Origin: a virus
Lineage: Duplodnaviria; Heunggongvirae; Uroviricota; Caudoviricetes
Length of the DNA stretch: 16,969 nt
Reading direction: 5' to 3' (one strand)
IMG/VR virus record: IMGVR_UViG_2663763054_000010
In this document: positions 281 through 16,969 of the stretch, piece by piece
Layout of the letters: each line of letters starts with the position of its first letter
Position numbering within the stretch: position 1 is the stretch's first letter
Notes under the pieces: model-generated
What the model was told of the DNA's origin: nothing
The model's database searches: none
What the model saw: the letters and a program-made list of their open reading frames with translations, nothing else
Position numbers and translations under genes: made by a program

Positions 281-290
281 GGAGTAACAC

Positions 291-1246: not shown

Positions 1247-1316
1247 GAGACCAGGCGGGGGAGAAATCCCTCGCCACCTCTGATGGGTCAGGCATCCTCA
1301 ATGCACCCACACTTAA

Positions 1317-1340
1317 CCCGCTTCGGCGGGTTTTTGTTTT
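1317..1340 (+). terminator. rho-independent terminator after hok (stem CCGC-UUCG-GCGG + T-tract)
   Basis: GC stem with UUCG tetraloop followed by TTTTTGTTTTT. Confidence 0.5.
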
Positions 1341-1466
1341 TATTTTCAACGCGTTTGAAGTTTTAGATGGTGCCGGAATAGAATCAAAAATACTTAAGTA
1401 GCGCGCAGGGAGAAGAGGGATGGACCCCGAACAGGGGAGTGCTATTTATCTGGAAGGATTCTGTTG

Positions 1467-1748
1467 ATGAAAATCGAAGAATTACGTGAAATTTTTAGTG
1501 AAGATGGCCTCTATACTGTGCGCGTTGAGAATGGCGCTATTGTCAGCCACTGCCTTCCAGACTACACAATTCTGATAATTCAGCCGTCTTTGCCAGCAGG
1601 CACGGGCGGCGCTCTCACGCATTTAAATCTGATTGGTACCAGCATCCCCCATGCACTGAAGAACAGGCCGAATGGCTCATTCAGTGTTACCGCAGGCGCG
1701 GATGCGAGGTTAAAAAAGCCCTTAGCCTCGACTACCGTCACTGGATAA
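1467..1748 (+). CDS. small prophage protein (93 aa); by position possibly Rem-like (recollection of Qin order hokD-rem-ydfU, not verified)
   Basis: ORF with ATG at 1467 (track starts at TTG 1464); identical copy at 7722-8003. Confidence 0.5.
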   Translation: MKIEELREIFSEDGLYTVRVENGAIVSHCLPDYTILIIQPSLPAGTGGALTHLNLIGTSIPHALKNRPNGSFSVTAGADARLKKPLASTTVTG

Positions 1749-1823
1749 TCTCCGTCAGGCTCCCTTACTCCGAACGGCCAACGCGTCCGTCCCGCACATT
1801 CCAGCAACGGATCTGGAGGTAAT

Positions 1824-2882
1824 GTGCGGGTATTACTTCGACCTGTTCTGGTACCGGAACTCGGTCTGGTTATCGTTAAGCCAGGCCGTGAATCAATGTC
1901 AGCATTCCATAACGGCAGAATACTGGTGGAGCCGGAACCAAAAAGCATGCGTAATCTGCCGTCCGGGGTCGTTCCTGCCGCTCGCCAGCCGCTGGTGGAA
2001 GACAAAACATTGCTGCCGTTTTTCAGTAACGCACGGGTGATTCGTGCTGCTGGTGGTGCTGGTGCATTGTCTGACTGGCTGTTGCGCCATATTAAATCCT
2101 GCCAGTGGCCACACGGCGATTATCATCACAGCGAAACCGTCATTCACCGTTATGGTACCGGCGCAATGGTGTTGTGCTGGCACTGCGACAACCAGCTGCG
2201 TGACCAGACATCCGAATCACTCGAGCAACTTGCTCATCAAAACCTGTCAGCATGGATGATTGACGTCATCGGTCACGCAATAAGCGGTACGCAGGAGCGT
2301 GAATTATCTCTGGCTGAATTATCCTGGTGGGCGGTCCGCAATCAGGTGGCGGACGCGCTACCGGAAGCGGTATTACGTCGTTCGCTGGGGTTGCGTGCGG
2401 AAAAAATTCGCTCTGTGTACAGTGAAAGCGACATCATACCGGGAGAGCAGACAGCCACCAGCATACTGAAGCAGCGCACAAAAAATATTGCGTTACTGCC
2501 TCACGTCCACCAGCAACAGAACCCACCACAGGAAAAGACGGTGGTCAGCATTGCCGTTGATCCGGAGTCACCGGCTCAGTATCTCCAGCGCCAGAAATCA
2601 CAACGGGAAGAGATGCCTGTATACACGCGCTGGGTAAAAACGCAGAAATGCATGACGTGTGGCAATCAGGCAGATGATCCGCATCACATCATTGGTCATG
2701 GACTGGGAGGGATGGGAACAAAGGCTGATGATTTGTTTGTTATTCCGTTATGCCGTAAATGCCGTAACGAACTACATGCCGGAGTAAAAGATTTTGAAGA
2801 GAAACACGGCAGTCAGCTGTTGTTGCTGATTCGTTTTTTAATGCACGCGAGAAATTCGGGTGTTCTGAAGTGGAAAGCATAA
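1824..2882 (+). CDS. YdfU-like (DUF968-type) prophage protein with C-terminal HNH-like zinc-finger nuclease motif
   Basis: GTG start 4 nt after GGAGG; C-terminus CMTCGNQADDPHHIIGHGLGG...PLCRKCRNELH (CxxC...HH...CxxC...H). Confidence 0.65.
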   Translation: MRVLLRPVLVPELGLVIVKPGRESMSAFHNGRILVEPEPKSMRNLPSGVVPAARQPLVEDKTLLPFFSNARVIRAAGGAGALSDWLLRHIKSCQWPHGDYHHSETVIHRYGTGAMVLCWHCDNQLRDQTSESLEQLAHQNLSAWMIDVIGHAISGTQERELSLAELSWWAVRNQVADALPEAVLRRSLGLRAEKIRSVYSESDIIPGEQTATSILKQRTKNIALLPHVHQQQNPPQEKTVVSIAVDPESPAQYLQRQKSQREEMPVYTRWVKTQKCMTCGNQADDPHHIIGHGLGGMGTKADDLFVIPLCRKCRNELHAGVKDFEEKHGSQLLLLIRFLMHARNSGVLKWKA

Positions 2883-3263
2883 ATGACCGAGCGCATAGAA
2901 TTTGTTTTACCTTACCCGCCGACGGTGAACACTTACTGGCGTCGTCGTGGCAGCACATATTTTGTATCAAAAGCCGGGGAGCGTTATCGCCGGGCAGTGG
3001 CGCTTATTGTTCGCCAGCAGCGGCTGAAATTAAGCCTGTCCGGAAGGTTGGCAATAAAAATTATTGCAGAACCACCGGATAAGCGCCGCCGTGACCTGGA
3101 CAATATTCTGAAAGCGCCGCTGGATGCGCTGACGCATGCGGGGTTGCTAATGGACGATGAGCAGTTTGATGAAATCAATATCGTTCGTGCTCAGCCAGTA
3201 TCTGGTGGACGTCTGGGGGTGAAGATTTATCCCATAATGCTTGAAGGGCAGGTCAAAAAATGA
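2883..3263 (+). CDS. rusA: RusA-family Holliday junction resolvase (variant a)
   Basis: ATG immediately after upstream TAA; RusA signature ...PPDKRRRDLDNILKAPLDALTHAGLLMDDEQ... Confidence 0.85.
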   Translation: MTERIEFVLPYPPTVNTYWRRRGSTYFVSKAGERYRRAVALIVRQQRLKLSLSGRLAIKIIAEPPDKRRRDLDNILKAPLDALTHAGLLMDDEQFDEINIVRAQPVSGGRLGVKIYPIMLEGQVKK

Positions 3264-4006
3264 AACTGGAAGATTTACCGAAATACTACTCCCCAAAATC
3301 CCCCGGCCTGACTGATGCATCGGCCTCAACGTCGAAAGATGCGCTGAGTATCACTGATGTGATGGCCGCGCAGGGCATGACACAGAATCGGGCTGAGATG
3401 GGGGTTTCTGCGTTCCTTGGGAAAATGGGCATTAGTATGAATGACAGAGAGCGGGCAACAGAATTGCTGACAGAATATGCACTCAGTCGGTGTGATCGCG
3501 TGGCGGCGTTAAGAAAACTCCCGGCAGAAATAAAACCGGCAGTGATGCGTATTATGGCTTCGTATGCGTTTGAAGATTATGCCCGTAGCGCGGCGAGCAA
3601 AAAACAGTGCCCCTGCTGTCACGGAAAAAAATTTATTGAAAGCGAGGTTTTTACAAACAAGATCCAGTATCCGGATGGTAAGCCGCCGGTATGGGCAAAG
3701 TGTACGAAAGGTGTGTATCCGTCTTACTGGGAAGAATGGAAAAAAGTCAGGGAGGTGGTAAAAGTTGCCTGTCCGGAGTGTGGCGGAAAGGGTGAGGTTT
3801 CCACCGCCTGTAAGGATTGCCGTGGGCGTGGTGTCGCCATTCATCGTGAAGAGTCGGTAAAACGTGGTATGCCTGTTATCAGAGACTGCCAGCGTTGTGG
3901 TGGTCGTGGCTATGAAAGACTACCATCAACGGAGGCATTTAATGCTATATGCGAGGTGACAAACCAGATAACACGCGCGTCATGGGAAAAAACAGTTAAG
4001 AAATTA
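3260..4006 (+). pseudogene. Q-like late antiterminator (variant a), 3' end replaced by IS2 after codon ~249; track ORF 3260-4093 has an IS-derived tail
   Basis: Identical to 9515-10261 then diverges at the IS2 terminus TGGATTTGCCCC (4007). Confidence 0.7.
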
Positions 4007-4017
4007 TGGATTTGCCC

Positions 4018-4923
4018 CTATATTTCCAGACATCTGTTATCACTTAACCCATTACAAGCCCGCTGCCGCAGATATTCCCGTGGCGAGCGATAACCCAGCG
4101 CACTATGCGGATGCCATTCGTTATAATGCTCGAACGCCTCTGCAAGGTTCTTTGCTGCCGTTAACCCGTCTGGTTTGGGCATGATACTGATGTAGTCACG
4201 CTTTATCGTTTTCACGAAGCTCTCTGCTATTCCGTTACTCTCCGGACTCCGCACCGCCGTGTTCTTCGGTTCAAGTCCCAACATCCGGGCGAACTGGCGT
4301 GTTTCATTAGCCCGGTAGCATGAACCATTATCCGTCAGCCACTCCACTGGAGACGACGGAAGATCGTTGCCGAAGCGGCGTTCCACCGCTCCCAGCATGA
4401 CGTCCTGTACTGTTTCACTGTTGAAGCCGCCGGTAGTCACCGCCCAGTGCAGTGCCTCACGATCACAGCAGTCCAGCGCGAACGTGACACGCAGTCTCTC
4501 TCCGTTATCACAGCAGAACTCGAACCCGTCAGAGCACCATCGCTGATTGCTTTCTTTCACGGCCACTCTGCCTGTATGTGCCCGTTTCGATGGCGGTACA
4601 GCAGGTTTTCGCTCAAGCAACAGCGCATTCTGGCGCATGATCCGGTAAACACGTTTGGCATTGATCGCAGGCATACCATCAAGTTCTGCCTGTCTGCGAA
4701 GCAGCGCCCATACCCGACGATAACCATACGTGGGCAGCTCTCCGATAACATGGTGTATACGGAGAAGCACATCCGTATCATCAGTGTGACGACTGCGGCG
4801 GCCATCCATCCAGTCATCGGTTCGTCTGAGAATGACGTGCAACTGCGCACGCGACACCCGGAGACAACGGCTGACTAAGCTTACTCCCCATCCCCGGGCA
4901 ATAAGGGCGCGTGCGCTATCCAC
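4018..4923 (-). CDS. insD: IS2 transposase OrfB (InsD), 301 aa
   Basis: Protein [34 protein letters not shown]... matches recalled IS2 InsD. Confidence 0.9.
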
Positions 4924-5246
4924 TTTTTTGCCCGTCCATATTCAACGGCTTCTTTGAGGAGTTCATTTTCCATCGTTTTCTTGCCGAGCAGGCGCTGGAG
5001 TTCTTTAATCTGCTTCATGGCGGCAGCAAGTTCAGAGGCAGGAACAACCTGTTCTCCGGCGGCGACAGCAGTAAGACTTCCTTCCTGGTATTGCTTACGC
5101 CAGAGAAATAACTGGCTGGCTGCTACACCATGTTGCCGGGCAACGAGGGAGACCGTCATCCCCGGTTCAAAGCTCTGCTGAACAATTGCGATCTTTTCCT
5201 GTGTGGTACGCCGTCTGCGTTTCTCCGGCCCTAAGACATCAATCAT
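4881..5246 (-). CDS. insC: IS2 OrfA (InsC), 121 aa
   Basis: [24 protein letters not shown]... from internal ATG of track ORF 4881-5291. Confidence 0.85.
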
Positions 5247-5472
5247 CTGTACTCCAATGACTAGTCTAAAAACTAGTATTAAGACTATCACTTATTTAAG
5301 TGATACTGGTTGTCTGGAGATTCAGGGGGCCAGTCTACGGACATTTTCTGCCTGTGGACCAGGAAAGTGCACGGGTGCTTTCCACTCCCATGAAGCCCGG
5401 CAATCCGCGCAGATACAGTAATAAACGAACTGACAGCAGTAAGATGGAGCGTTTCTTTTGAACAACCAGACA

Positions 5473-5715
5473 ATGACTTTTACCTCTGAACAATTGCGTA
5501 AACACGCGCAGGAAATGCTGCGTCATGCTGAACAACTCGAAAAAACGGGCATAACAAAAGACGCTATCCGTAAAGATATGGTACCCGCGCTTCGGGAACT
5601 GATGCAGGCGAAGCATCGCGCACAGAAAGCAGTAGATGAGCTGGTGGACTGTGTGGCAGAGCTGGAAACCAGAGTCGGAAAGTTTGAAAAACTGGTGCAG
5701 GAGGTGCTGCGCTGA
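5473..5715 (+). CDS. hypothetical prophage protein (~80 aa, MTFTSEQLRKHAQEM...)
   Basis: ATG at 5473 (track begins at TTG 5458); stop overlaps rusA start; paralog-like N-terminus shared with 455-799. Confidence 0.5.
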   Translation: MTFTSEQLRKHAQEMLRHAEQLEKTGITKDAIRKDMVPALRELMQAKHRAQKAVDELVDCVAELETRVGKFEKLVQEVLR

Positions 5716-6089
5716 TGCGCCATGAGTTTATTTTACCTTATCCGCCGACGGTGAATACTTACTGGCGACGTCGTGACAACACATATTTTGTATCAAAAGC
5801 CGGTGAGCGTTATCGCCGGGATGTGGCGCTTATTGTCCGTCAGCAGCGACTGAAATTAAGCCTGTCCGGAAGACTGGCGATAAAGATTATTGCAGAGCCA
5901 CCGGATAAGCGCCGTCGTGACCTGGACAATATCCTGAAAGCACCACTGGATGCACTGACACATGCGGGAGTGTTAATGGACGATGAGCAGTTTGATGAAA
6001 TCAATATCGTTCGTGCTCAGCCAGTATCTGGTGGACGTCTGGGGGTGAAGATTTACCCCATAATGCATGAAGAGCAGGTCAAAAAATGA
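5715..6089 (+). CDS. rusA: RusA-family Holliday junction resolvase (variant b)
   Basis: 124 aa, same signature as 2883-3263 but divergent N-terminus (MRHEFILPYPP). Confidence 0.85.
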   Translation: MRHEFILPYPPTVNTYWRRRDNTYFVSKAGERYRRDVALIVRQQRLKLSLSGRLAIKIIAEPPDKRRRDLDNILKAPLDALTHAGVLMDDEQFDEINIVRAQPVSGGRLGVKIYPIMHEEQVKK

Positions 6090-6907
6090 AACTGGAAGAT
6101 TTACCGAAATACTACTCCCCAAAATCCCCTTGCCTGACCGATGCATCGGCCTCAACGTCAAAAGATGCGCTGAGTATCACTGATGTGATGGCCGCGCAGG
6201 GCATGACACAGAATCGGGCTGAGATGGGGTTTTCTGCGTTCCTGGGGAAAATGGGCATCAGTATGAATGACAGGGCGCGGGCAACAGAATTACTGGCAGA
6301 TTATGCACTCAGTCGGTGCGATCGTGTGGCGGCGTTGAGAAAACTTCCGGCAGAAATAAAACCGGTAGTGATGCGCATTATGGCTTCGTACGCTTTTGAG
6401 GATTATGCCCGCAGCGCAGCGAGTAAAAAGCAGTGCCCTTGTTGCTATGGGGAAAAATTTATTGAAAGCGTAGTTTTTACAAACAAGGTCCAGTATCCGG
6501 ATGGTAAGCCGCCGGTATGGGCAAAGTGTACGAAAGGTGTGTATCCGTCTTACTGGGAAGAATGGAAAAAAGTCAGGGAGGTGGTAAAAGTTGCCTGTCC
6601 GGAGTGTGGCGGAAAGGGTGAGGTTTCCACCGCCTGTAAGGATTGCCGTGGGCGTGGTGTCGCCATTCATCGTGAAGAGTCGGTAAAACGTGGTATGCCT
6701 GTTATCAGAGACTGCCAGCGTTGTGGTGGTCGTGGCTATGAAAGACTACCATCAACGGAGGCATTTAATGCTATATGCGAGGTGACAAACCAGATAACAC
6801 GCGCGTCATGGGAAAAAACAGTTAAGAAATTTTATGATGCGCTGGTGACCCGGTTTGATATTGAAGAAGCATGGGCTGAGCGGCAGTTAAAAAAGGTAAC
6901 TAGGTAA
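6086..6907 (+). CDS. Q-like late antiterminator (variant b), 273 aa with CxxC zinc-finger repeats
   Basis: ATGA overlap with rusA; CPCC..CPECGGKG..CKDCRGRG..CQRCGGRG motifs; followed by promoter + short terminator (PR'/tR' layout). Confidence 0.65.
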   Translation: MKLEDLPKYYSPKSPCLTDASASTSKDALSITDVMAAQGMTQNRAEMGFSAFLGKMGISMNDRARATELLADYALSRCDRVAALRKLPAEIKPVVMRIMASYAFEDYARSAASKKQCPCCYGEKFIESVVFTNKVQYPDGKPPVWAKCTKGVYPSYWEEWKKVREVVKVACPECGGKGEVSTACKDCRGRGVAIHREESVKRGMPVIRDCQRCGGRGYERLPSTEAFNAICEVTNQITRASWEKTVKKFYDALVTRFDIEEAWAERQLKKVTR

Positions 6908-6912
6908 CAAGG

Positions 6913-6940
6913 TTGATTTTTCCGGAATCTGTGGTAAATT
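6913..6940 (+). promoter_or_regulatory. candidate late promoter PR' (TTGATT-16 nt-TAAATT) just downstream of Q
   Basis: sigma70-like hexamers; position matches lambdoid Q/qut/PR' organisation; copies at 10342-10369 and 14901-14928. Confidence 0.35.
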
Positions 6941-6989
6941 CGTCATAACGATGGGCGTTTTATGCCTGACGTTAGAAGAGTTTCTACAA

Positions 6990-7012
6990 CCCGCCGCCGA
7001 GCGGGTTTTTTA
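6990..7012 (+). terminator. tR'-like rho-independent terminator (CCCGC-loop-GCGGG + T6)
   Basis: GC-rich hairpin plus TTTTTT about 45-60 nt downstream of the candidate PR'. Confidence 0.6.
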
Positions 7013-7131
7013 TGACTGAAATCGCGTCAGTACAGTAAACGCGCTGGTGGCGGTGAATACCTGTCTTTCAGCTTGCTGGCTTTTTCGACAAGAGTTATTG
7101 GTGTGTCACGTTAACCGGAAAAGGAAAAGAC

Positions 7132-7329
7132 ATGCTAAAACAGCAGGATATGACAGAAACCGCCAGAGTGGTGTTTAATGAATTAAGCGTTACCGAACCG
7201 GCGACAGTCGGGGAGATAGCGCAGAATACTTACCTTTCACGCGAACGCTGCCAGTTAATACTGACCCAGCTGGTTATGGCGGGTCTGGCAGACTATCAGT
7301 TCGGTTGTTACAGACGCCTTCCGCAGTGA
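7132..7329 (+). CDS. small protein (65 aa), possibly helix-turn-helix-like (weak guess)
   Basis: AAAGGAAAAG RBS before ATG; stop inside terminator hairpin; identical copy at 10561-10758. Confidence 0.45.
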   Translation: MLKQQDMTETARVVFNELSVTEPATVGEIAQNTYLSRERCQLILTQLVMAGLADYQFGCYRRLPQ

Positions 7330-7340
7330 AGGCTTTTTTA
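7316..7340 (+). terminator. rho-independent terminator (GCCTTC-loop-GAAGGC + T6)
   Basis: Perfect 6-bp stem followed by TTTTTT; copy at 10745-10769. Confidence 0.55.
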
Positions 7341-7479
7341 TTTGTGGTAAATGGGCGGCTGGTGGGTGTTAGGGGCACCCACCAGCCATCTGCTCATGCG
7401 TTGGGTTCACAAGCAAACCTCAGGCCCACTGCTTTGCGCAAAAGCAGAATGAGCCTATCAGAGACAGGCTTAATGATCC

Positions 7480-7585
7480 ATGCTTAATACTGTAAAAATA
7501 TCCAGTTGTGAGTTAATCAACGCCGACTGCCTGGAATTTATCCGGTCGTTACCCGAAAATTCTGTTGACCTGATAGTCACGGACC
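7480..7585 (+). pseudogene. 5' fragment (first 35 codons) of the DPPY DNA methyltransferase, cut at a duplication junction
   Basis: Identical to 10909-11014 then switches at 7586 to sequence identical to 1332 onward. Confidence 0.75.
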
Positions 7586-7721
7586 ATTTTGTTTTTATTT
7601 TCAACGCGTTTGAAGTTTTAGATGGTGCCGGAATAGAATCAAAAATACTTAAGTAGCGCGCAGGGAGAAGAGGGATGGACCCCGAACAGGGGAGTGCTAT
7701 TTATCTGGAAGGATTCTGTTG

Positions 7722-8003
7722 ATGAAAATCGAAGAATTACGTGAAATTTTTAGTGAAGATGGCCTCTATACTGTGCGCGTTGAGAATGGCGCTATTGTCA
7801 GCCACTGCCTTCCAGACTACACAATTCTGATAATTCAGCCGTCTTTGCCAGCAGGCACGGGCGGCGCTCTCACGCATTTAAATCTGATTGGTACCAGCAT
7901 CCCCCATGCACTGAAGAACAGGCCGAATGGCTCATTCAGTGTTACCGCAGGCGCGGATGCGAGGTTAAAAAAGCCCTTAGCCTCGACTACCGTCACTGGA
8001 TAA
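7722..8003 (+). CDS. small prophage protein, copy of 1467-1748
   Basis: Identical protein. Confidence 0.5.
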   Translation: MKIEELREIFSEDGLYTVRVENGAIVSHCLPDYTILIIQPSLPAGTGGALTHLNLIGTSIPHALKNRPNGSFSVTAGADARLKKPLASTTVTG

Positions 8004-8078
8004 TCTCCGTCAGGCTCCCTTACTCCGAACGGCCAACGCGTCCGTCCCGCACATTCCAGCAACGGATCTGGAGGTAAT

Positions 8079-9137
8079 GTGCGGGTATTACTTCGACCTG
8101 TTCTGGTACCGGAACTCGGTCTGGTTATCGTTAAGCCAGGCCGTGAATCAATGTCAGCATTCCATAACGGCAGAATACTGGTGGAGCCGGAACCAAAAAG
8201 CATGCGTAATCTGCCGTCCGGGGTCGTTCCTGCCGCTCGCCAGCCGCTGGTGGAAGACAAAACATTGCTGCCGTTTTTCAGTAACGCACGGGTGATTCGT
8301 GCTGCTGGTGGTGCTGGTGCATTGTCTGACTGGCTGTTGCGCCATATTAAATCCTGCCAGTGGCCACACGGCGATTATCATCACAGCGAAACCGTCATTC
8401 ACCGTTATGGTACCGGCGCAATGGTGTTGTGCTGGCACTGCGACAACCAGCTGCGTGACCAGACATCCGAATCACTCGAGCAACTTGCTCATCAAAACCT
8501 GTCAGCATGGATGATTGACGTCATCGGTCACGCAATAAGCGGTACGCAGGAGCGTGAATTATCTCTGGCTGAATTATCCTGGTGGGCGGTCCGCAATCAG
8601 GTGGCGGACGCGCTACCGGAAGCGGTATTACGTCGTTCGCTGGGGTTGCGTGCGGAAAAAATTCGCTCTGTGTACAGTGAAAGCGACATCATACCGGGAG
8701 AGCAGACAGCCACCAGCATACTGAAGCAGCGCACAAAAAATATTGCGTTACTGCCTCACGTCCACCAGCAACAGAACCCACCACAGGAAAAGACGGTGGT
8801 CAGCATTGCCGTTGATCCGGAGTCACCGGCTCAGTATCTCCAGCGCCAGAAATCACAACGGGAAGAGATGCCTGTATACACGCGCTGGGTAAAAACGCAG
8901 AAATGCATGACGTGTGGCAATCAGGCAGATGATCCGCATCACATCATTGGTCATGGACTGGGAGGGATGGGAACAAAGGCTGATGATTTGTTTGTTATTC
9001 CGTTATGCCGTAAATGCCGTAACGAACTACATGCCGGAGTAAAAGATTTTGAAGAGAAACACGGCAGTCAGCTGTTGTTGCTGATTCGTTTTTTAATGCA
9101 CGCGAGAAATTCGGGTGTTCTGAAGTGGAAAGCATAA
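8079..9137 (+). CDS. YdfU-like protein with HNH-like motif, copy of 1824-2882
   Basis: Identical protein. Confidence 0.65.
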   Translation: MRVLLRPVLVPELGLVIVKPGRESMSAFHNGRILVEPEPKSMRNLPSGVVPAARQPLVEDKTLLPFFSNARVIRAAGGAGALSDWLLRHIKSCQWPHGDYHHSETVIHRYGTGAMVLCWHCDNQLRDQTSESLEQLAHQNLSAWMIDVIGHAISGTQERELSLAELSWWAVRNQVADALPEAVLRRSLGLRAEKIRSVYSESDIIPGEQTATSILKQRTKNIALLPHVHQQQNPPQEKTVVSIAVDPESPAQYLQRQKSQREEMPVYTRWVKTQKCMTCGNQADDPHHIIGHGLGGMGTKADDLFVIPLCRKCRNELHAGVKDFEEKHGSQLLLLIRFLMHARNSGVLKWKA

Positions 9138-9518
9138 ATGACCGAGCGCATAGAATTTGTTTTACCTTACCCGCCGACGGTGAACACTTACTGGCGTCGT
9201 CGTGGCAGCACATATTTTGTATCAAAAGCCGGGGAGCGTTATCGCCGGGCAGTGGCGCTTATTGTTCGCCAGCAGCGGCTGAAATTAAGCCTGTCCGGAA
9301 GGTTGGCAATAAAAATTATTGCAGAACCACCGGATAAGCGCCGCCGTGACCTGGACAATATTCTGAAAGCGCCGCTGGATGCGCTGACGCATGCGGGGTT
9401 GCTAATGGACGATGAGCAGTTTGATGAAATCAATATCGTTCGTGCTCAGCCAGTATCTGGTGGACGTCTGGGGGTGAAGATTTATCCCATAATGCTTGAA
9501 GGGCAGGTCAAAAAATGA
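9138..9518 (+). CDS. rusA: RusA-family resolvase (variant a), second copy
   Basis: Identical to 2883-3263. Confidence 0.85.
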   Translation: MTERIEFVLPYPPTVNTYWRRRGSTYFVSKAGERYRRAVALIVRQQRLKLSLSGRLAIKIIAEPPDKRRRDLDNILKAPLDALTHAGLLMDDEQFDEINIVRAQPVSGGRLGVKIYPIMLEGQVKK

Positions 9519-10336
9519 AACTGGAAGATTTACCGAAATACTACTCCCCAAAATCCCCCGGCCTGACTGATGCATCGGCCTCAACGTCGAAAGATGCGCT
9601 GAGTATCACTGATGTGATGGCCGCGCAGGGCATGACACAGAATCGGGCTGAGATGGGGGTTTCTGCGTTCCTTGGGAAAATGGGCATTAGTATGAATGAC
9701 AGAGAGCGGGCAACAGAATTGCTGACAGAATATGCACTCAGTCGGTGTGATCGCGTGGCGGCGTTAAGAAAACTCCCGGCAGAAATAAAACCGGCAGTGA
9801 TGCGTATTATGGCTTCGTATGCGTTTGAAGATTATGCCCGTAGCGCGGCGAGCAAAAAACAGTGCCCCTGCTGTCACGGAAAAAAATTTATTGAAAGCGA
9901 GGTTTTTACAAACAAGATCCAGTATCCGGATGGTAAGCCGCCGGTATGGGCAAAGTGTACGAAAGGTGTGTATCCGTCTTACTGGGAAGAATGGAAAAAA
10001 GTCAGGGAGGTGGTAAAAGTTGCCTGTCCGGAGTGTGGCGGAAAGGGTGAGGTTTCCACCGCCTGTAAGGATTGCCGTGGGCGTGGTGTCGCCATTCATC
10101 GTGAAGAGTCGGTAAAACGTGGTATGCCTGTTATCAGAGACTGCCAGCGTTGTGGTGGTCGTGGCTATGAAAGACTACCATCAACGGAGGCATTTAATGC
10201 TATATGCGAGGTGACAAACCAGATAACACGCGCGTCATGGGAAAAAACAGTTAAGAAATTTTATGATGCGCTGGTGACCCGGTTTGATATTGAAGAAGCA
10301 TGGGCTGAGCGGCAGTTAAAAAAGGTAACTAGGTAA
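9515..10336 (+). CDS. Q-like late antiterminator (variant a), intact 273 aa
   Basis: Same as 3260-4006 then continues with the native C-terminus ...KKFYDALVTRFDIEEAWAERQLKKVTR. Confidence 0.65.
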   Translation: MKLEDLPKYYSPKSPGLTDASASTSKDALSITDVMAAQGMTQNRAEMGVSAFLGKMGISMNDRERATELLTEYALSRCDRVAALRKLPAEIKPAVMRIMASYAFEDYARSAASKKQCPCCHGKKFIESEVFTNKIQYPDGKPPVWAKCTKGVYPSYWEEWKKVREVVKVACPECGGKGEVSTACKDCRGRGVAIHREESVKRGMPVIRDCQRCGGRGYERLPSTEAFNAICEVTNQITRASWEKTVKKFYDALVTRFDIEEAWAERQLKKVTR

Positions 10337-10418
10337 CAAGGTTGATTTTTCCGGAATCTGTGGTAAATTCGTCATAACGATGGGCGTTTTATGCCTGACG
10401 TTAGAAGAGTTTCTACAA

Positions 10419-10441
10419 CCCGCCGCCGAGCGGGTTTTTTA
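10419..10441 (+). terminator. tR'-like terminator (copy of 6990-7012)
   Basis: Same hairpin + T-tract. Confidence 0.6.
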
Positions 10442-10560
10442 TGACTGAAATCGCGTCAGTACAGTAAACGCGCTGGTGGCGGTGAATACCTGTCTTTCAG
10501 CTTGCTGGCTTTTTCGACAAGAGTTATTGGTGTGTCACGTTAACCGGAAAAGGAAAAGAC

Positions 10561-10758
10561 ATGCTAAAACAGCAGGATATGACAGAAACCGCCAGAGTGG
10601 TGTTTAATGAATTAAGCGTTACCGAACCGGCGACAGTCGGGGAGATAGCGCAGAATACTTACCTTTCACGCGAACGCTGCCAGTTAATACTGACCCAGCT
10701 GGTTATGGCGGGTCTGGCAGACTATCAGTTCGGTTGTTACAGACGCCTTCCGCAGTGA
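10561..10758 (+). CDS. small protein, copy of 7132-7329
   Basis: Identical protein. Confidence 0.45.
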   Translation: MLKQQDMTETARVVFNELSVTEPATVGEIAQNTYLSRERCQLILTQLVMAGLADYQFGCYRRLPQ

Positions 10759-10908
10759 AGGCTTTTTTATTTGTGGTAAATGGGCGGCTGGTGGGTGTTA
10801 GGGGCACCCACCAGCCATCTGCTCATGCGTTGGGTTCACAAGCAAACCTCAGGCCCACTGCTTTGCGCAAAAGCAGAATGAGCCTATCAGAGACAGGCTT
10901 AATGATCC

Positions 10909-11967
10909 ATGCTTAATACTGTAAAAATATCCAGTTGTGAGTTAATCAACGCCGACTGCCTGGAATTTATCCGGTCGTTACCCGAAAATTCTGTTGACCT
11001 GATAGTCACGGACCCGCCGTACTTTAAAGTGAAGCCTGAGGGCTGGGATAACCAGTGGAAGGGCGACGATGATTACCTGAAGTGGCTGGACCAGTGTCTG
11101 GCGCAGTTCTGGCGGGTGCTGAAACCTGCCGGAAGTCTTTACCTGTTCTGTGGTCATCGCCTGGCATCTGATATCGAAATCATGATGCGTGAACGCTTCA
11201 GTGTGCTGAACCATATTATCTGGGCGAAGCCGTCCGGACGCTGGAACGGATGCAACAAGGAAAGCCTGCGGGCGTATTTCCCCGCCACAGAGCGCATTCT
11301 GTTCGCGGAACATTATCAGGGGCCGTATCGTCCGAAAGATGCCGGGTATGCGGCGAAGGGCAGTGCACTGAAACAGCATGTGATGGCCCCGCTGATTTCT
11401 TACTTTCGTGATGCGCGAGCTGCCCTGGGGATAACGGCAAAACAGATTGCAGATGCCACAGGAAAGAAAAACATGGTGTCGCACTGGTTCAGTGCCGGTC
11501 AGTGGCAGTTGCCGAATGAAAGCGATTATCTGAAATTACAGGCGCTGTTTGCCCGGGTGGCAGAAGAGAAGCATCGGCGTGGTGAACTGGAAAAGCTCCA
11601 CCACCAGCTGGTGGATACGTATACCTCACTGAACCGGCAGTATGCGGAGCTGCTGAGTGAATATAAACATCTGCGGCGGTATTTTGGCGTGACGGTGCAG
11701 GTGCCGTATACCGATGTGTGGACGCATAAACCGGTGCAGTTCTATCCCGGGAAACATCCGTGCGAAAAACCGGCAGAAATGCTGCAGCAGATAATCAGCG
11801 CTAGCAGTCGTCCGGGTGACCTGATTGCAGATTTTTTCATGGGGTTGGGTTCGACAGTGAAAGCGGCACTGGCGCTCGGGCGTCGTGCAATTGGCGTTGA
11901 GCTGGAGACTGAACGTTTTGAGCAGACGGTTCGGGAAGTACAGGATTTAGTCAGCCAGAACGGATGA
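10909..11967 (+). CDS. DNA methyltransferase, DPPY (N6-adenine/N4-cytosine) type with beta-class motif order; no cognate endonuclease seen (orphan)
   Basis: Motif IV DLIVTDPPYF near N-terminus, motif I DLIADFFMGLGST near C-terminus. Confidence 0.8.
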   Translation: MLNTVKISSCELINADCLEFIRSLPENSVDLIVTDPPYFKVKPEGWDNQWKGDDDYLKWLDQCLAQFWRVLKPAGSLYLFCGHRLASDIEIMMRERFSVLNHIIWAKPSGRWNGCNKESLRAYFPATERILFAEHYQGPYRPKDAGYAAKGSALKQHVMAPLISYFRDARAALGITAKQIADATGKKNMVSHWFSAGQWQLPNESDYLKLQALFARVAEEKHRRGELEKLHHQLVDTYTSLNRQYAELLSEYKHLRRYFGVTVQVPYTDVWTHKPVQFYPGKHPCEKPAEMLQQIISASSRPGDLIADFFMGLGSTVKAALALGRRAIGVELETERFEQTVREVQDLVSQNG

Positions 11968-12007
11968 TATTGAAGAATTAATTACGCGTCGTTATTATGC
12001 GGCTCCC

Positions 12008-12083
12008 GGCCCTTTAGCTCAGTGGTGAGAGCGAGCGACTCATAATCGCCAGGTCGCTGGTTCAAATCCAGCAAGGGCCACCA
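12008..12083 (+). tRNA. tRNA with CAU anticodon, tRNA-Ile2 (lysidine) type, ileX/ileZ-like
   Basis: Cloverleaf: acceptor GGCCCTT/AAGGGCC, anticodon loop CTCATAA, T-loop TTCAAAT, CCA end. Confidence 0.85.
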
Positions 12084-12090
12084 TCACATA

Positions 12091-12167
12091 CCGCCATTAG
12101 CTCATCAGGAAAGAGCGCCAGCCTTCGAAGCTGGCTGCGCGGGGTTCAAGTCCCCGATGGCGGTCCA
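12091..12167 (+). tRNA. tRNA-Arg, anticodon UCG as read
   Basis: Acceptor CCGCCAT/ATGGCGG, anticodon stem CCAGC/GCTGG with loop CTTCGAA, T-loop TTCAAGT, CCA end. Confidence 0.75.
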
Positions 12168-12180
12168 TTATCTGCATCAT

Positions 12181-12257
12181 GCGTTGTTAGCTCAGCCGGA
12201 CAGAGCAATTGCCTTCTAAGCAATCGGTCACTGGTTCGAATCCAGTACAACGCGCCA
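12181..12257 (+). tRNA. tRNA-Arg, anticodon UCU (reads rare AGA)
   Basis: Acceptor GCGTTGT/ACAACGC, anticodon loop CTTCTAA, T-loop TTCGAAT, CCA end. Confidence 0.85.
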
Positions 12258-12271
12258 CACTTATTTTCCCA

Positions 12272-12300
12272 GGCTCGCTTTTGCGGGCCTTTTTTTTAAA
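12272..12300 (+). terminator. rho-independent terminator after tRNA cluster
   Basis: AGGCTCGC-TTTT-GCGGGCCT stem (one mismatch) followed by T8. Confidence 0.5.
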
Positions 12301-12514
12301 TGTCTCACAATTCAGACGGTTGACAGTTGTCTGTTTTGCGGGGAGTTTGTTAAAAGAAACTGGCATGGTGAATCCCCCTGTGCGGAGGGGCAATCAGCGA
12401 GTAGGTATATGGGATAATCGCGGATTCAGGTGCTGGTACTGAATTCACCGGGAGGCACCCGGCATCATGCAATGGCACATAGCGCCACTCTCCAGCCCTC
12501 TCCGGAGGGGCTTT
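12293..12514 (+). other. conserved ~215-bp structured non-coding element, copy 1; candidate sRNA or leader ending in a hairpin
   Basis: Near-identical to 15947-16170; several GC stems; no ORF conserved between copies. Confidence 0.3.
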
Positions 12515-12744
12515 TCTGTGCCGGATACATCACAGTTTCTGGAACCTTAGGTACTACAGTATCAGTCAGGGTGCTATATTTTCAGATGTGATGAAAGCCT
12601 GTCAGCAGGCAGGGCGTATCGGAAATGACCCAGTAGAGAAAACGTTGACTCAGATACCGGTGCTGAGTTACCGGGAAACCGGCATCACATGACCGCTATC
12701 CTGAGGTGTACTGGCAATAGCGGACACTACCATTTGTTCTTTTT

Positions 12745-13563
12745 TTAAGCAGCCATCTGATGATATTTTTCCCTGAAGGCTGCCGGGGAGATATTCCCCA
12801 GACGAGAGTGACGACGCTGACGATTGTAGAAAATCTCAATGTATTCCCGTATTACTGAGATGGCTTCATCCCGGTTATTAAAACGATAGTGGCTCAGGCT
12901 CTCATTTTTCAGCGTTCCCCAGAAGCTTTCCATCGGAGCGTTGTCGTAACAGTTACCTTTACGCGACATTGATGTTTTCAGACCAGACTGCTCCTGTATG
13001 ACCCGGTAATCGTATGCGCAGTACTGTGAACCTCGATCAGAGTGGTGGATTAGCCCGGCAGGTGGGCGCTGGCTCCTGAGCGCCATAAACAGGGCTTTAC
13101 CTGTCAGCTCTTTTGTCATGCGCTCTCCCATGGCGTAGCCGACAATTTCGCACGTATAAACATCTTTGATGCCAGCGAGGTACAACCATCCCTCCTGTGT
13201 GGCAACATACGTCAGGTCCGCCACCCAGACCTGATTTGGTGCTGTAGGAGCGAACGTCTGGTTCAGCAGATTTGGCGCAACTGGCAGATTGTGGTTCGAG
13301 TTCGTAGTCGCTCTGAACTTGCGTTTCTGCTTACAGCGTAGCCTTAGCTCCTTACGAAGACGTGCCAGTCGGTCACGACCAACGATGATGCCATTCTCTG
13401 CCAGCTCCGTCTGGAGCCGCCGGGTTCCATATGTTTCGCGAGTGCGGATATGTGCCACCTTAATCTCCAGTTTTAGCCGCTCATCACTTTGTTTTCTGTC
13501 TGAGGGTTCATGCTGTACCCAGTTGTAATAACCGCTCCTGGATACACCAAATACCTGACACAT
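12745..13563 (-). CDS. IS3-family transposase OrfB (DDE integrase-like), 272 aa from first in-frame Met
   Basis: Recalled IS3-family OrfB features; normally expressed as an OrfAB frameshift fusion. Confidence 0.85.
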   Translation of the reverse strand: MCQVFGVSRSGYYNWVQHEPSDRKQSDERLKLEIKVAHIRTRETYGTRRLQTELAENGIIVGRDRLARLRKELRLRCKQKRKFRATTNSNHNLPVAPNLLNQTFAPTAPNQVWVADLTYVATQEGWLYLAGIKDVYTCEIVGYAMGERMTKELTGKALFMALRSQRPPAGLIHHSDRGSQYCAYDYRVIQEQSGLKTSMSRKGNCYDNAPMESFWGTLKNESLSHYRFNNRDEAISVIREYIEIFYNRQRRHSRLGNISPAAFREKYHQMAA

Positions 13564-13598
13564 CGCTTCAATGGGAAATTGTTGTCGCCATTGTTCGA

Positions 13599-13842
13599 TT
13601 AACGCGTATTTTTCAGCGACTCCTGTGCAAAATACGCTGTTGCTTTTTTTAATATATCTCGCTCAAGGCGAGCTTCATTTAACGCCTTACGCAGTTGCAG
13701 AATTTCAGATTCCAGTTCAGCCACCGTGCGGGAACCAGGAGTACCGAGCCCTTTTCTGGCGGCGGTAACCCATTGTCCTAAAGTGCCTTCAGGAAGAGAT
13801 AATCGGGAAGCGCCTTCACTGATCGAAAGTTGATTTTCAAAG
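13599..13842 (-). pseudogene. IS3-family OrfA, C-terminal part only (...ENQLSISEGASRLSLPEG...ILKKATAYFAQESLKNTR)
   Basis: Track ORF 13599-14000 is chimeric: 3' part is orfA, 5' part is antisense rusA. Confidence 0.7.
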
Positions 13843-14084
13843 CGACTGAAATTAAGCCTGTCCGGAAGACTGGCGATAAAGATTATTGCAGAGCCACCGG
13901 ATAAGCGCCGTCGTGACCTGGACAATATCCTGAAAGCACCACTGGATGCACTGACACATGCGGGAGTGTTAATGGACGATGAGCAGTTTGATGAAATCAA
14001 TATCGTTCGTGGTCAGCCAGTATCTGGTGGACGTCTGGGGGTGAAGATTTACCCCATAATGCATGAAGAGCAGGTCAAAAAATG
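13843..14084 (+). pseudogene. rusA: rusA (variant b) 3' fragment, lacking about the first 44 codons
   Basis: Matches 5848-6089 with one substitution (RAQPV to RGQPV); upstream replaced by the IS. Confidence 0.8.
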
Positions 14085-14936
14085 AAACTGGAAGATTTAC
14101 CGAAATACTACTCCCCAAAATCCCCTTGCCTGACCGATGCATCGGCCTCAACGTCAAAAGATGCGCTGAGTATCACTGATGTGATGGCCGCGCAGGGCAT
14201 GACACAGAATCGGGCTGAGATGGGGTTTTCTGCGTTCCTGGGGAAAATGGGCATCAGTATGAATGACAGGGCGCGGGCAACAGAATTACTGGCAGATTAT
14301 GCACTCAGTCGGTGCGATCGTGTGGCGGCGTTGAGAAAACTTCCGGCAGAAATAAAACCGGTAGTGATGCGCATTATGGCTTCGTACGCTTTTGAGGATT
14401 ATGCCCGCAGCGCAGCGAGTAAAAAGCAGTGCCCTTGTTGCTATGGGGAAAAATTTATTGAAAGCGTAGTTTTTACAAACAAGGTCCAGTATCCGGATGG
14501 TAAGCCGCCGGTATGGGCAAAGTGTACGAAAGGTGTGTATCCGTCTTACTGGGAAGAATGGAAAAAAGTCAGGGAGGTGGTAAAAGTTGCCTGTCCGGAG
14601 TGTGGCGGAAAGGGTGAGGTTTCCACCGCCTGTAAGGATTGCCGTGGGCGTGGTGTCGCCATTCATCGTGAAGAGTCGGTAAAACGTGGTATGCCTGTTA
14701 TCAGAGACTGCCAGCGTTGTGGTGGTCGTGGCTATGAAAGACTACCATCAACGGAGGCATTTAATGCTATATGCGAGGTGACAAACCAGATAACACGCGC
14801 GTCATGGGAAAAAACAGTTAAGAAATTCTATGATGCGCTGGTGACTCGGTTTGATATTGAAGAAGCATGGGCTGAGCGGCAGTTAAAAAAGGTAACTAGG
14901 TTGATTTTTCCGGAATCTGTGGTAAATTCGTCATAA
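14082..14936 (+). CDS. Q-like late antiterminator (variant b), 284 aa; an 8-bp deletion removes the normal stop and adds an 11-aa tail
   Basis: Same as 6086-6907 apart from a few substitutions; ...AGGTAACTAGGTAACAAGGTTG becomes AGGTAACTAGGTTG; ORF runs through the PR' -35/-10. Confidence 0.6.
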   Translation: MKLEDLPKYYSPKSPCLTDASASTSKDALSITDVMAAQGMTQNRAEMGFSAFLGKMGISMNDRARATELLADYALSRCDRVAALRKLPAEIKPVVMRIMASYAFEDYARSAASKKQCPCCYGEKFIESVVFTNKVQYPDGKPPVWAKCTKGVYPSYWEEWKKVREVVKVACPECGGKGEVSTACKDCRGRGVAIHREESVKRGMPVIRDCQRCGGRGYERLPSTEAFNAICEVTNQITRASWEKTVKKFYDALVTRFDIEEAWAERQLKKVTRLIFPESVVNSS

Positions 14937-14977
14937 CTATGGGCGTTTTATGCCTGACGTTAGAAGAGTTTCTACAA

Positions 14978-15000
14978 CCCGCCGCCGAGCGGGTTTTTTA
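14978..15000 (+). terminator. tR'-like terminator (third copy)
   Basis: CCCGC-loop-GCGGG + T6. Confidence 0.6.
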
Positions 15001-15038
15001 TTGCGGAATTAATTACGGACCGTTATTATTCTGCTCCC

Positions 15039-15114
15039 GGCCCTTTAGCTCAGTGGTGAGAGCGAGCGACTCATAATCGCCAGGTCGCTGGTTCAAATCC
15101 AGCAAGGGCCACCA
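15039..15114 (+). tRNA. tRNA (CAU), Ile2-type, second copy
   Basis: Identical to 12008-12083. Confidence 0.85.
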
Positions 15115-15121
15115 TCACAAA

Positions 15122-15201
15122 CCGCCATTAGCTTATCAGGAAGAGCAGACGACACGATAACAGGGTTGTTGGTGCGGGGGCGGGTCCCCGATGGCGGTCC
15201 A
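15122..15201 (+). pseudogene. degenerate tRNA (tRNA-Arg-like ends, anticodon arm and T-loop disrupted)
   Basis: Acceptor and D-arm as in 12091-12167, but the middle has no anticodon stem and the T-loop is GCGGGT. Confidence 0.55.
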
Positions 15202-15214
15202 TTATCGGTATTCA

Positions 15215-15291
15215 GCGTTGTTAGCTCAGCCGGACAGAGCAATTGCCTTCTAAGCAATCGGTCACTGGTTCGAATCCAGTACAGCGCGCCA
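15215..15291 (+). tRNA. tRNA-Arg (UCU), second copy, with one acceptor-stem change giving a U-G pair
   Basis: Same as 12181-12257 except ACAGCGC for ACAACGC. Confidence 0.8.
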
Positions 15292-15401
15292 TATTCATTC
15301 TTCCAGATTCCTTCCGGCAGAGCCTTATACTGAAATATACCTGGCTCAGGATATTGTTGAAAATATTTTATGTTTGTCAAAAATAAAAGTTCTGTTAAGT
15401 A

Positions 15402-15755
15402 TTGATTGAGTGTTTGTTATACGGTCTAATGGTTTTTTCAGCATTAAATATTTATCATTCATATGGTGTGGGTAGAGTGAATATTGATGAGGCGTCGGGG
15501 TGTTTCATCCTTAGGCAGCGTATTGATATAGTCAATGCAGCACGAGCAAAGGCCTTCAGCCGTTTGACAGTTTTGTTCTGTACTCCTGATCGTCTTTCGG
15601 GAAGAGACGTTATTATTCTGAATAGTGATGCTATACAGAGGGTTTGCGATGAGTTCATGGTTGCTAATTCAGAATTATTTGCTCTTGTTCAGGAGTACAA
15701 CAGAATAGCCAGGACCTGTGGTATGGATGAACTTCGGATTACTCATCTGGGGTAG
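15402..15755 (+). CDS. hypothetical protein in AT-rich cargo region; start codon uncertain (track start is TTG)
   Basis: 117-aa ORF; no recognisable motif. Confidence 0.3.
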   Translation: MIECLLYGLMVFSALNIYHSYGVGRVNIDEASGCFILRQRIDIVNAARAKAFSRLTVLFCTPDRLSGRDVIILNSDAIQRVCDEFMVANSELFALVQEYNRIARTCGMDELRITHLG

Positions 15756-15946
15756 ATACATATCTGGATTATCACCTGTTACGGTAAAAAGTGATTGCTT
15801 ACTGTTTTTGTGAATGGCATTGCAGCAGCCGGATAATGTCAGTGCTGGCTGACGGTGTGCTGGTGGCGGGTGTGGTGGTTGTTGCTTTCCCGTTGCTGAA
15901 AAAGAAAACGCCAGACTGTTAGCCGGGTATCAGTTAGCGGGAGAAA

Positions 15947-16170
15947 TTTTTAAATACTTCACAATTCAGGCGGTTGACTGTTGTCTGGTTTGCGGGGAGT
16001 TTGTTAAAAGAAACTGGCATGGTGAATCCCCCTGTGCGGAGGGGCAATCAGCGAGTAGGTATATGGGATAATCGCGGATTCAGGTGCTGGTACTGAATTC
16101 ACCGGGAGGCACCCGGCACCATGCAATGGCACATAGCGCCACTCTCCAGCCCCTCTCCGGAGGGGCTGTT
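15947..16170 (+). other. conserved structured non-coding element, copy 2
   Basis: Aligns to 12293-12514 with scattered substitutions; ends in perfect hairpin AGCCCCTC-TCCG-GAGGGGCT. Confidence 0.3.
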
Positions 16171-16202
16171 TATATTGATTTTGTCAGATGTGAGTAAACT
16201 CC

Positions 16203-16538
16203 TTATGGACTTTGTTGTTTTAGTCCATAAGGACATATTTGCAGAGTGCAACGGTTATTAAAGCATTCATTCAATACGTTATCTGTATTTGTAGGGCATT
16301 CCTGGCTATTTTTGATTGAATTCCAGAATGTTTTATTGAATGGTACTACGTTGTAAATGGTTACAGGTAGCACTTTGTTATTGAGCATGATGCCTGTGTG
16401 AGTCAGTGTAAATATACTTTCAGGAGGTAAGAAAGCATCCGATTGATACCAGATTATTAATTTTATTTTACTCCATATGACTGAAAAAGATATTCCGCAT
16501 GATGGCTGGATAACTGTATCAATCACAATCCACTTCAT
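16203..16538 (-). CDS. hypothetical protein (111 aa) in AT-rich region
   Basis: ORF only; 3' end coincides with a perfect inverted repeat (about 16202-16232). Confidence 0.25.
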
Positions 16539-16925: not shown

Positions 16926-16969
16926 TGAGGTGTACTGGCAATAGCGGACACTACCATTTGTTCTTTTTT
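16926..16969 (-). mobile_element. IS3-family (IS600-like) element, right end only, cut by window end
   Basis: TGAGGTGTACTGGCAATAGCGGACACTACCATTTGTTCTTTTTT identical to 12692-12735. Confidence 0.75.

Follow-up and report, generated by a model that had tools for sequence, protein, structure and literature searches.

Does the late-control region of a lambdoid prophage carry four copies of its antiterminator gene? A fourfold Q array, if real, would be an unusual regulatory arrangement for a prophage, and the stretch of DNA analyzed here (16,969 bp in full, hereafter the window) reads as such an array. An initial annotation, made from the letters alone, listed four rusA–Q pairs within 12 kb in two variants (a and b) and offered two explanations: a real array of recombined late-control regions, whose several Q/PR' units could drive one downstream cargo, or an assembly artefact. 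We found that the window contains two ordinary, already sequenced prophage remnants and that it does not show a real array. With a probability that we put at roughly 0.93, the fourfold arrangement is a scaffolding and gap-filling artefact of a short-read Shigella sonnei draft assembly. The true content is two known, IS-eroded lambdoid late-control regions, each written out twice.

Results

The window is the entire draft record CXFM01000154.1 (assembly GCA_001247155.1), and both ends of this record lie inside IS600. Comparison of the record with the window text revealed three positions at which the record carries N (Table 1), and these coincide with three of the four junctions named in the initial annotation. 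The record, labelled a contig, is therefore made up of four pieces, and none of the joins between them is covered by sequence. It follows that the supposed truncations of Q by IS2 and of rusA by an IS600-like element do not stand: both are gap placeholders, the first of which sits between Q and the IS2 terminus. At 7585/7587, where a methylase fragment meets the second unit, there is likewise a gap. The sole real junction of the four is IS2/5338, the only sequenced joint tested; finished genomes and sister contigs read across it, and it is the normal left border of the second of the two loci described below (locus B).

The 7585/7587 join was absent from every other locus compared and from 5,426 complete E. 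coli genomes, the 13839/13841 join was seen only in CXFM01000154.1 among the loci compared, and the novel joints did not recur in 20 finished-genome loci, in sister drafts or in the 5,426 E. coli genomes. The IS2/5338 junction was also absent from these 5,426 genomes (junction-probe search; the collection is without Shigella), and in a search of the same collection with the whole window the best matches collapsed the repeats into one 9.5-kb prophage region. Neither of the fusion ORFs that run across false joins (Q-a::IS2, 277 aa; methylase'::rem-upstream, 58 aa) was on record. We also considered two structural events. A real IS2 insertion in Q-a was rejected because an N precedes the IS2 terminus, a second junction is missing and every finished genome has an intact Q-a; a tandem duplication joined illegitimately at 7585/7587 was dropped once the N at 7586 was found.

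Table 1. Features of the window and the evidence for them (L001 and L032 are finished-genome copies of loci A and B, respectively).
Feature	Position	Strand	Evidence or remark
IS600, terminal 81 bp, left end of record	1..81	+	reverse-complement match to 12702-12782, 100%
Piece 1, first image of locus A	82..4005	+	1-4005 vs L001 6742-10746, 100%
Piece 1 content: small ORFs, sok/hok, rem, ydfU (DUF968), rusA-a 2883-3263, Q-a 3260-4005 cut by gap		+	Pfam; Rfam (sok)
Gap placeholder	4006	.	N in public record, A in window
IS2, orfA and orfB	4007..5337	-	Pfam rve/HTH_Tnp_1
Locus B, left part	5338..6488	+	5179-7013 vs L032 9093-10920; homologous-region annotation of NZ_CP065613.1
Content of 5338..6488: replicative helicase 3' end, 85-aa ORF 5458-5715, rusA-b 5715-6089, 5' half of b-type Q from 6086		+	
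343-bp Q stretch identical in loci A and B	6489..6831	+	also 3663-4005, 9918-10260, 14485-14827
a-type continuation of piece 2: Q 3' end, terminator, 65-aa ORF, methylase N-terminus to DPPY codons	6832..7585	+	duplicates 10261-11014
Gap placeholder	7586	.	N in public record, A in window
Piece 3, second image of locus A	7587..12696	+	7587-13840 vs L001 8073-14325, 99.95%
Piece 3 genes: rem, ydfU 8079-9137, rusA-a 9138-9518, intact Q-a 9515-10336		+	Pfam
Piece 3 downstream: 65-aa ORF, N6/N4 DNA methylase 10909-11967, three tRNAs, STnc100		+	Pfam, tRNA calls, Rfam
IS600, right border of locus A	12697..13839	-	Pfam; same site in finished genomes
Gap placeholder	13840	.	N in public record, A in window
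Piece 4, second image of locus B	13841..16920	+	13841-16969 vs L032 9760-12888, 99.97%, 1 mismatch
Piece 4 content: rusA-b from codon 43, Q-b 14082-14936 (284 aa), two tRNAs, STnc100, IraM/PmrD-like gene (-)			
IS600, first 49 bp, right end of record	16921..16969	-	matches 12697-12745
rusA ORFs (PF05866)	2883-3263, 5715-6089, 9138-9518; 5'-truncated copy from 13841	+	Pfam
Q ORFs (PF03589)	3260-4005+, 6086-6907, 9515-10336, 14082-14936	+	Pfam

The four pieces derive from two loci. Locus A adjoins ompW in finished S. sonnei genomes and carries a single rusA-a/Q-a, with one rusA–Q in each of 10 finished chromosomes, including S. sonnei 53G (HE616528.1); a full IS600 forms its left border (L001 5624-6779). 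Locus B adjoins ipaH, carries rusA-b/Q-b, again with one rusA–Q in each of 10 finished chromosomes, and is bordered on the right by IS600 (L032 12888-14044). The two sets of chromosomes overlap in three (CP104423.1, HE616528.1 and CBDDMI010000001.1), and in these three the loci share one orientation and are separated by 665-782 kb. Thus the 20 finished-genome loci, drawn from outside the exact sublineage with the SNP at 5485, hold one module each, and each module type is single-copy, with a locus to itself, in the finished S. sonnei genomes. The SNP at 5485 is particular to the sublineage and results in a variant of the 85-aa ORF; as the finished loci all come from outside this sublineage, a rearrangement confined to it keeps a small probability.

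What the initial annotation had read from the genes themselves was largely borne out. All four rusA–Q pairs are present in the window text; it is their continuity that fails, three of the joins being N. Q-a and Q-b differ at exactly 10 residues, spread over positions 16-135, where roughly ten had been counted, and the RusA variants differ mainly at the N-terminus, as stated. The two a copies are indeed identical (1332-4005 and 7587-10260, 0 mismatches in 2,674 bp), and a and b are distinct alleles rather than recent copies of each other, each belonging to a different prophage remnant.

The ends of the pieces fall into two classes. Position 4005, where piece 1 stops, is the last base of a 343-bp stretch common to a and b, and the IS2 terminal repeat begins at 4007; the other four breakpoints (7585, 7587, 13839 and 13841) are off repeat boundaries in all loci compared, with piece 3 stopping inside IS600 after 1,143 bp of the element. 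The 343-bp stretch is an unresolvable repeat at which pieces end or change locus, as is seen in piece 2. At the left of piece 2, IS2 (4007-5135) matches the IS2 beside locus B in finished genomes at 99.8-100%, and the left of the piece is 99.2% identical to locus B. A difference map showed that all 67 a/b differences lie within 5720-6488; the piece is b-type to 6488 and a-type from 6832, with an additional a-type base at 6016. Beyond the b-type part, 6489-7585 is identical to 9918-11014 and departs from true locus B at 6832, 6850, 6902-6909 and 6950. Piece 2 is thus a chimera, with locus B on the left of the 343-bp stretch and locus A on its right.

Sister assemblies vary at the same stretch. 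Among 24 sister contigs, chosen by an identical 85-aa protein, four run into the right part of locus B and two into that of locus A, and 16 are shorter than 2 kb, the five of these that were inspected (L027-L031) stopping 60-90 bp into the 343-bp stretch. L024 and L025 are N-free 4,071-bp contigs that follow the path from B-left to A-right. Two of the 24 are N-joined scaffolds with differing breakpoints; in one of them, L023, the Ns at 3498 and 5824 correspond to window 3651/4507 and 6831/8338, so that the same pieces are joined at other positions.

Discussion

The three N junctions, the single-copy loci in finished genomes and the variable joins of sister assemblies all favor the artefact explanation, and we propose the following course of events. 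The starting point would be two IS-eroded lambdoid remnants whose Q genes have 343 bp in common and whose borders are the multicopy elements IS600 and IS2. Read pairs in these shared sequences could have let the scaffolder chain contigs from A-left, B-left, A-right and B-right, after which the gap filler may have lengthened both edges of each false gap along their own genomic continuation. Where no overlap was found, each gap would have been reduced to one N and its flanks extended into duplicates of kilobase length, and the breakpoints 7585, 7587, 13839 and 13841 would be arbitrary extension stops. Such extension of edges within their own loci would leave each locus written twice and piece 2 chimeric. 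Gaps that GapFiller and SSPACE fail to close would be left as a single N, a behavior that no paper found in our literature search states.

SSPACE followed by 120 GapFiller rounds (the Sanger pipeline) is the probable producer of CXFM01000154.1, as the accession series suggests; PMC5447701 assigns the CXB* S. sonnei assemblies to Holt et al. 2012. [quoted passage not shown] 2016, PMC5320598). In GapFiller, each of the two gap edges grows one base at a time, closure requires an overlap of at least 10 nt and extension stops at ambiguous overhangs (PMC3446322). The window resembles false joins of this kind (PMC5320598, PMC3446322) in its gap characters at the joins, in edges extended within their own loci, in extension halting at ambiguous reads (the end of the 343-bp stretch and the IS2 terminus) and in sister assemblies that vary at the same repeat. 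It differs in the great length of the duplicated flanks, which reach 2.7 kb and require many extension rounds.

Could the array nevertheless be real, with IS2/IS600 transposition and homologous recombination having joined and duplicated loci A and B into four modules in 12 kb? IS-mediated rearrangements are abundant in Shigella genomes, and PMC7819885, where it cites McDonough & Butterton 1999, reports that in S. dysenteriae 1 a stx prophage segment flanked by IS600 is amplified in tandem. There, as here, a prophage late region is bounded by IS600, which would provide a natural precedent if the array were real; however, in S. dysenteriae 1 the whole IS-bounded unit is repeated with IS600 at each joint, whereas the window has unequal units and N gaps at non-IS positions. 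Some read pairs must have linked the pieces for the scaffolder (at least 5 in the pipeline of PMC5320598), but the IS copies and the 343 bp common to both loci should produce such pairs in any case. Crossing sequence is lacking at three of the four joins, the duplicated flanks are exactly what gap edges extended in their own loci would read, Q-a has no IS2 junction at its far side and there is no target duplication, the pieces are joined elsewhere in sister assembly L023, and the twenty finished-genome loci have one module each. We therefore regard a real array as extremely improbable: neither recombined late-control regions nor several Q/PR' units driving one downstream cargo have sequence support.

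A smaller claim is that only piece 2 is genuine, as a hybrid locus of this sublineage (helicase'–rusA-b–Q(b5'/a3')–methylase) beside intact A and B, which would make three modules at three loci, the rest being scaffolding. Piece 2 does pass through the 343-bp stretch without an N, as do the contigs L024 and L025 along the same path; a gap closed by GapFiller, however, carries no N, and an N-free contig consequently proves nothing. The hybrid would have arisen by unequal exchange between directly oriented Q genes, and the direct orientation of A and B in finished genomes is the geometry in which a duplication yields exactly such a hybrid. This implies a duplication of ~0.67 Mb or a translocation between the remnants at ompW and ipaH, but megabase-scale duplications are unstable and fixation in several isolates is unlikely. 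In addition, the 343-bp exact repeat is about the short-read insert size, which makes the path through it ambiguous; four sister assemblies resolve the repeat the opposite way, the five short contigs inspected (of the 16 below 2 kb) break inside it, and the a-type base at 6016 amid b-type sequence looks like consensus mixing. A hybrid locus is thus very unlikely, and we retain the artefact reading for piece 2 as for the other joins.

The window permits no biological conclusion on multiple Q/PR' units. Our results also call for caution with draft records labelled contigs, which may be scaffolds with single-N gaps: where the N has been replaced by a base, false joins mimic insertion junctions, truncated genes and gene arrays.

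The remnants themselves have known relatives. Locus A shares the Qin-like gene order hok–rem–ydfU–rusA–Q with the ompW-integrated lambdoid prophage (PPompW type), matches PPompW phage records at ~90% and adjoins ompW in finished S. sonnei. Compared with the PPompW prophage, the S. sonnei locus is reduced to a remnant; IS600 and IS1 border and interrupt it, and its Q is followed by a methylase and a tRNA cluster. All four Q copies are ordinary members of the PF03589 antiterminators (154-184 bits, E-values 1e-45 to 1e-55), a family that we take to be of the phage 82/QuuQ type, and rusA (PF05866, ~62 bits) stands directly upstream of them with a 4-bp overlap. A simple consensus scan for a late promoter downstream of Q revealed no sigma-70 consensus match in 10250-11000. 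At ~80 bp downstream of Q, a terminator-like hairpin is present together with a T-run (10417-10436), and in Q-b of locus B an 8-bp deletion over the stop codon lengthens the C-terminus by 11 residues.

Results

Three scaffold gaps beneath four rusA–Q copies

The initial annotation had described four rusA–Q pairs in two variants, a and b, within 12 kb. ORF listing, Pfam scans and self-BLAST confirmed that four copies are present in the letters of the window (see the table), and in the ORF listing each rusA overlaps the Q gene after it by 4 bp. As had been described, the a copies are identical, with no mismatch over 2,674 bp (1332-4005 and 7587-10260; self-BLAST), while the "roughly ten" residues said to separate Q-a from Q-b number exactly ten, all within positions 16-135, and RusA-a and RusA-b differ chiefly at the N-terminus. 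Self-BLAST also placed both window ends within further IS600 copies.

Features of the window
Feature	Coordinates	Strand	Basis	Remark
sok (hok/sok type I toxin-antitoxin)	921-1096		Rfam, 112 bits	
Hok/Gef ORF (hok/sok)	1034-1246			
rusA (RusA family)	2883-3263, 5715-6089, 9138-9518; from 13841		ORF listing, Pfam	last copy 5'-truncated
Q antiterminator (PF03589)	3260-, 6086-6907, 9515-10336, 14082-14936		ORF listing, Pfam	
IS2	4007-5337		Pfam/self-BLAST	
N6/N4 DNA methylase	10909-11967		Pfam	
tRNA cluster, locus A	12008-12257			CAT, Arg-TCG, Arg-TCT; downstream of Q
STnc100 sRNA homologue, locus A	12334-12523		124 bits	
IS600	12697-13839		Pfam/self-BLAST	
tRNA cluster, locus B	15039-15291			CAT, Arg-TCT only; downstream of Q
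STnc100 sRNA homologue, locus B	15988-16177		132 bits	
IraM/PmrD-like anti-adapter gene, 111 aa	16203-16538	(-)		downstream of Q-b

A look-up of the 85-aa ORF at 5458-5715 showed that the window is the entire 16,969-bp record CXFM01000154.1 of draft assembly GCA_001247155.1. This record has N at 4006, 7586 and 13840, where the window reads A, and three of the four junctions named by the initial annotation are these positions. It consists of four scaffolded pieces (1-4005, 4007-7585, 7587-13839 and 13841-16969), and no sequence crosses the joins. The proposed truncations of Q by IS2 (4006/4007) and of rusA by an IS600-like element (13842/13843) must be withdrawn, the joins being the N gaps at 4006 and 13840. 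An A in place of N hides the gaps and makes apparent fusion ORFs: a 277-aa Q::IS2 ORF (3260-4093) and a 58-aa ORF (7480-7656), the latter an artefactual fragment because the false join at 7585 cuts the DPPY-motif codons of the methylase (7574-7585 / 11003-11026). Sister record CXFS01000178.1 holds the same material with Ns elsewhere, one falling between the equivalents of window 3651 and 4507, the other between those of 6831 and 8338.

The pieces belong to two distant loci

Locus A, the ompW-adjacent prophage remnant with rusA-a and Q-a, was represented by the ten loci returned for the exact Q-a protein in finished chromosomes, among them HE616528.1 (S. sonnei 53G according to a published paper). 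One module per locus was found in all ten, with ompW a few kb upstream in eight; the order is IS600, small ORFs, hok, rem, ydfU, rusA, Q, a 65-aa ORF, methylase, tRNAs and IS600. Since window 1-4005 (100%) and 7587-13840 (99.95%) both match this one locus, locus A appears twice. Compared with the window, three of the finished genomes (L005, L008, L009) are 250 bp longer between hok and ydfU (around 8045-8296 of these loci; window equivalent 1554/1555) and have an 86-aa Rem ORF, and in 53G (L005) ydfU is split into ORFs of 208 aa and 113 aa.

Locus B, the ipaH-adjacent remnant with rusA-b and Q-b, has the same orientation as locus A and is 670 kb (CP104423.1), 782 kb (HE616528.1) or 665 kb (CBDDMI010000001.1) away from it. 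It runs from an ipaH-type effector through phage tail remnants, IS600, IS2 (split by IS21) and a helicase remnant to the 85-aa ORF, rusA-b, Q-b, tRNAs, an IraM-like gene, a truncated DUF1737 gene and IS600. In finished S. sonnei chromosomes the exact 284-aa Q-b protein occurs once each, and 1,407 blocks of the collection list it, such chromosomes among them. An 8-bp deletion spanning the stop codon of this Q gene (14898-14936; equivalent to 6902-6909 in piece 2) makes Q-b 284 instead of 273 aa, with an 11-residue tail. A locus-B-like region of NZ_CP065613.1 (labelled 'E. coli' FDAARGOS_944; 6467-10571, 99.6% to window 5337-7013) has IS600 within the helicase gene, a 273-aa Q and no 8-bp deletion.

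Over its 3,129 bp, piece 4 has one mismatch to locus B (99.97% identity). Piece 2 agrees with locus B from the IS2 end to 6831, bar two positions, 5485 (a lineage SNP) and 6016 (a-type base), and carries a-type differences from 6832 on. The IS2/5338 junction is real, because finished genomes and sister contigs span it, and forms the ordinary border of locus B on its left. This IS2 is broken in finished genomes by IS21 (istA/istB; 7033-9092 of the finished locus B) with 43 bp missing, and in the draft window it is unbroken across 5136-5178, reflecting either a lineage difference or consensus from other IS2 copies in gap filling.

A hybrid copy and a 343-bp common stretch

The second module (b1, 5717-7585) and the third (a2, 9146-11014) show 67 differences, every one in 5720-6488; 6489-7585 is identical to a2. 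The fourth (b2, from 13841) equals b1 through 6831 except at 6016, then departs at 6832, 6850, an 8-bp indel (6902-6909) and 6950, precisely the a2/b2 differences. Thus b1 is a hybrid, b-type on its left and a-type on its right. All copies share 343 bp (3663-4005, 6489-6831, 9918-10260 and 14485-14827). At 6016, piece 2 has an a-type C amid b-type rusA (RusA Gly to Ala), with G in finished locus B and piece 4, as if reads of both loci had been mixed in the consensus.

The same 85-aa variant is carried by 24 contigs. Sixteen are shorter than 2 kb, and five of the sixteen were read: they start in the IS2 end and halt 60-90 bp into the 343-bp stretch. Four contigs continue rightward in locus B, its true continuation, two (L024, L025) switch to the right-hand part of locus A, and two are the N-joined scaffolds. 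Such scatter is expected where short-read assembly meets an unresolvable repeat, and would not be expected of an inherited rearrangement.

Discussion

Taken together, these results argue strongly against a real array: it exists as window letters, with three joins that are N and loci that are single-copy in finished genomes. The artefact alternative, which the initial annotation had also raised, is the one that they support. Comparison with related genomes upheld the IS2/5338 junction, which is spanned, and not 7585/7587, which flanks an N in the record; the window arrangement, the 7585/7587 join and the IS2/5338 junction occurred in none of 5,426 complete E. coli genomes. A real local array of rusA–Q modules, with no sequenced joint in its favour, is very unlikely. 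A real hybrid locus, with the left of B joined to the right of A by unequal exchange between directly oriented Q genes, would account for piece 2 and for contigs L024 and L025, and would require that roughly 0.67 Mb had been duplicated; sister assemblies resolve the 343-bp repeat otherwise and closed gaps carry no N, and we consider it very unlikely.

How the artefact may have arisen is suggested by the accession series, which fits the Sanger bulk submissions of the Holt et al. 2012 S. sonnei isolates, to which CXB* records have been attributed (PMC5447701). In the Sanger pipeline, SSPACE scaffolds Velvet contigs, keeping N gaps at joins, and 120 GapFiller iterations follow; both programs are greedy and, according to the pipeline authors, can make false joins (PMC5320598). 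GapFiller grows both gap edges base by base, halting at ambiguous overhangs, and closure requires an overlap of at least 10 nt (PMC3446322). For two bacterial assemblies, the Pilon authors found a precision of 25% among the closures made by GapFiller v1.10, although the reference they give is to the other program called GapFiller (PMC4237348).

Read pairs in the common Q stretch and IS copies could have led to A-left, B-left, A-right and B-right being falsely chained in that order. A-left would grow across the 343-bp stretch until a and b reads part at 4005; B-left would grow left across IS2 until, at the IS2 terminus (4007), the many copies of the element no longer share a flank. At the other two gaps every edge would follow its own locus until extension ended, giving the 2.7-kb and 1-kb duplicates and a single N per gap. 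A gap filled but unclosed retains one N; a literature search found no published statement of this for GapFiller or SSPACE. A base substituted for N in draft records can yield false insertion junctions and gene arrays.

The real content is a pair of lambdoid late-control regions eroded by IS elements, each with a single rusA–Q pair; both loci are already in finished, published genomes, and the underlying elements are known. Q proteins of the PF03589 family modify RNA polymerase at the late promoter, allowing terminator read-through, and each Q here would be predicted to do so at its own late promoter. A terminator-like hairpin (10417-10436) lies about 80 bp 3' of Q-a, and a simple scan gave no consensus promoter. 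Q-a is followed by the methylase, tRNAs, an sRNA homologue and IS600, and Q-b by tRNAs, an sRNA homologue, the truncated DUF1737 gene and IS600, with the tRNA cluster preceding the STnc100 homologue in both loci. In NZ_CP065613.1 the annotation gives tRNA-Ile for the CAT tRNA and IraM for the IraM/PmrD-like gene; the latter matches PF11183 in finished genomes. Upstream of rem–ydfU, hok/sok has the same placement as in Qin-type prophages.
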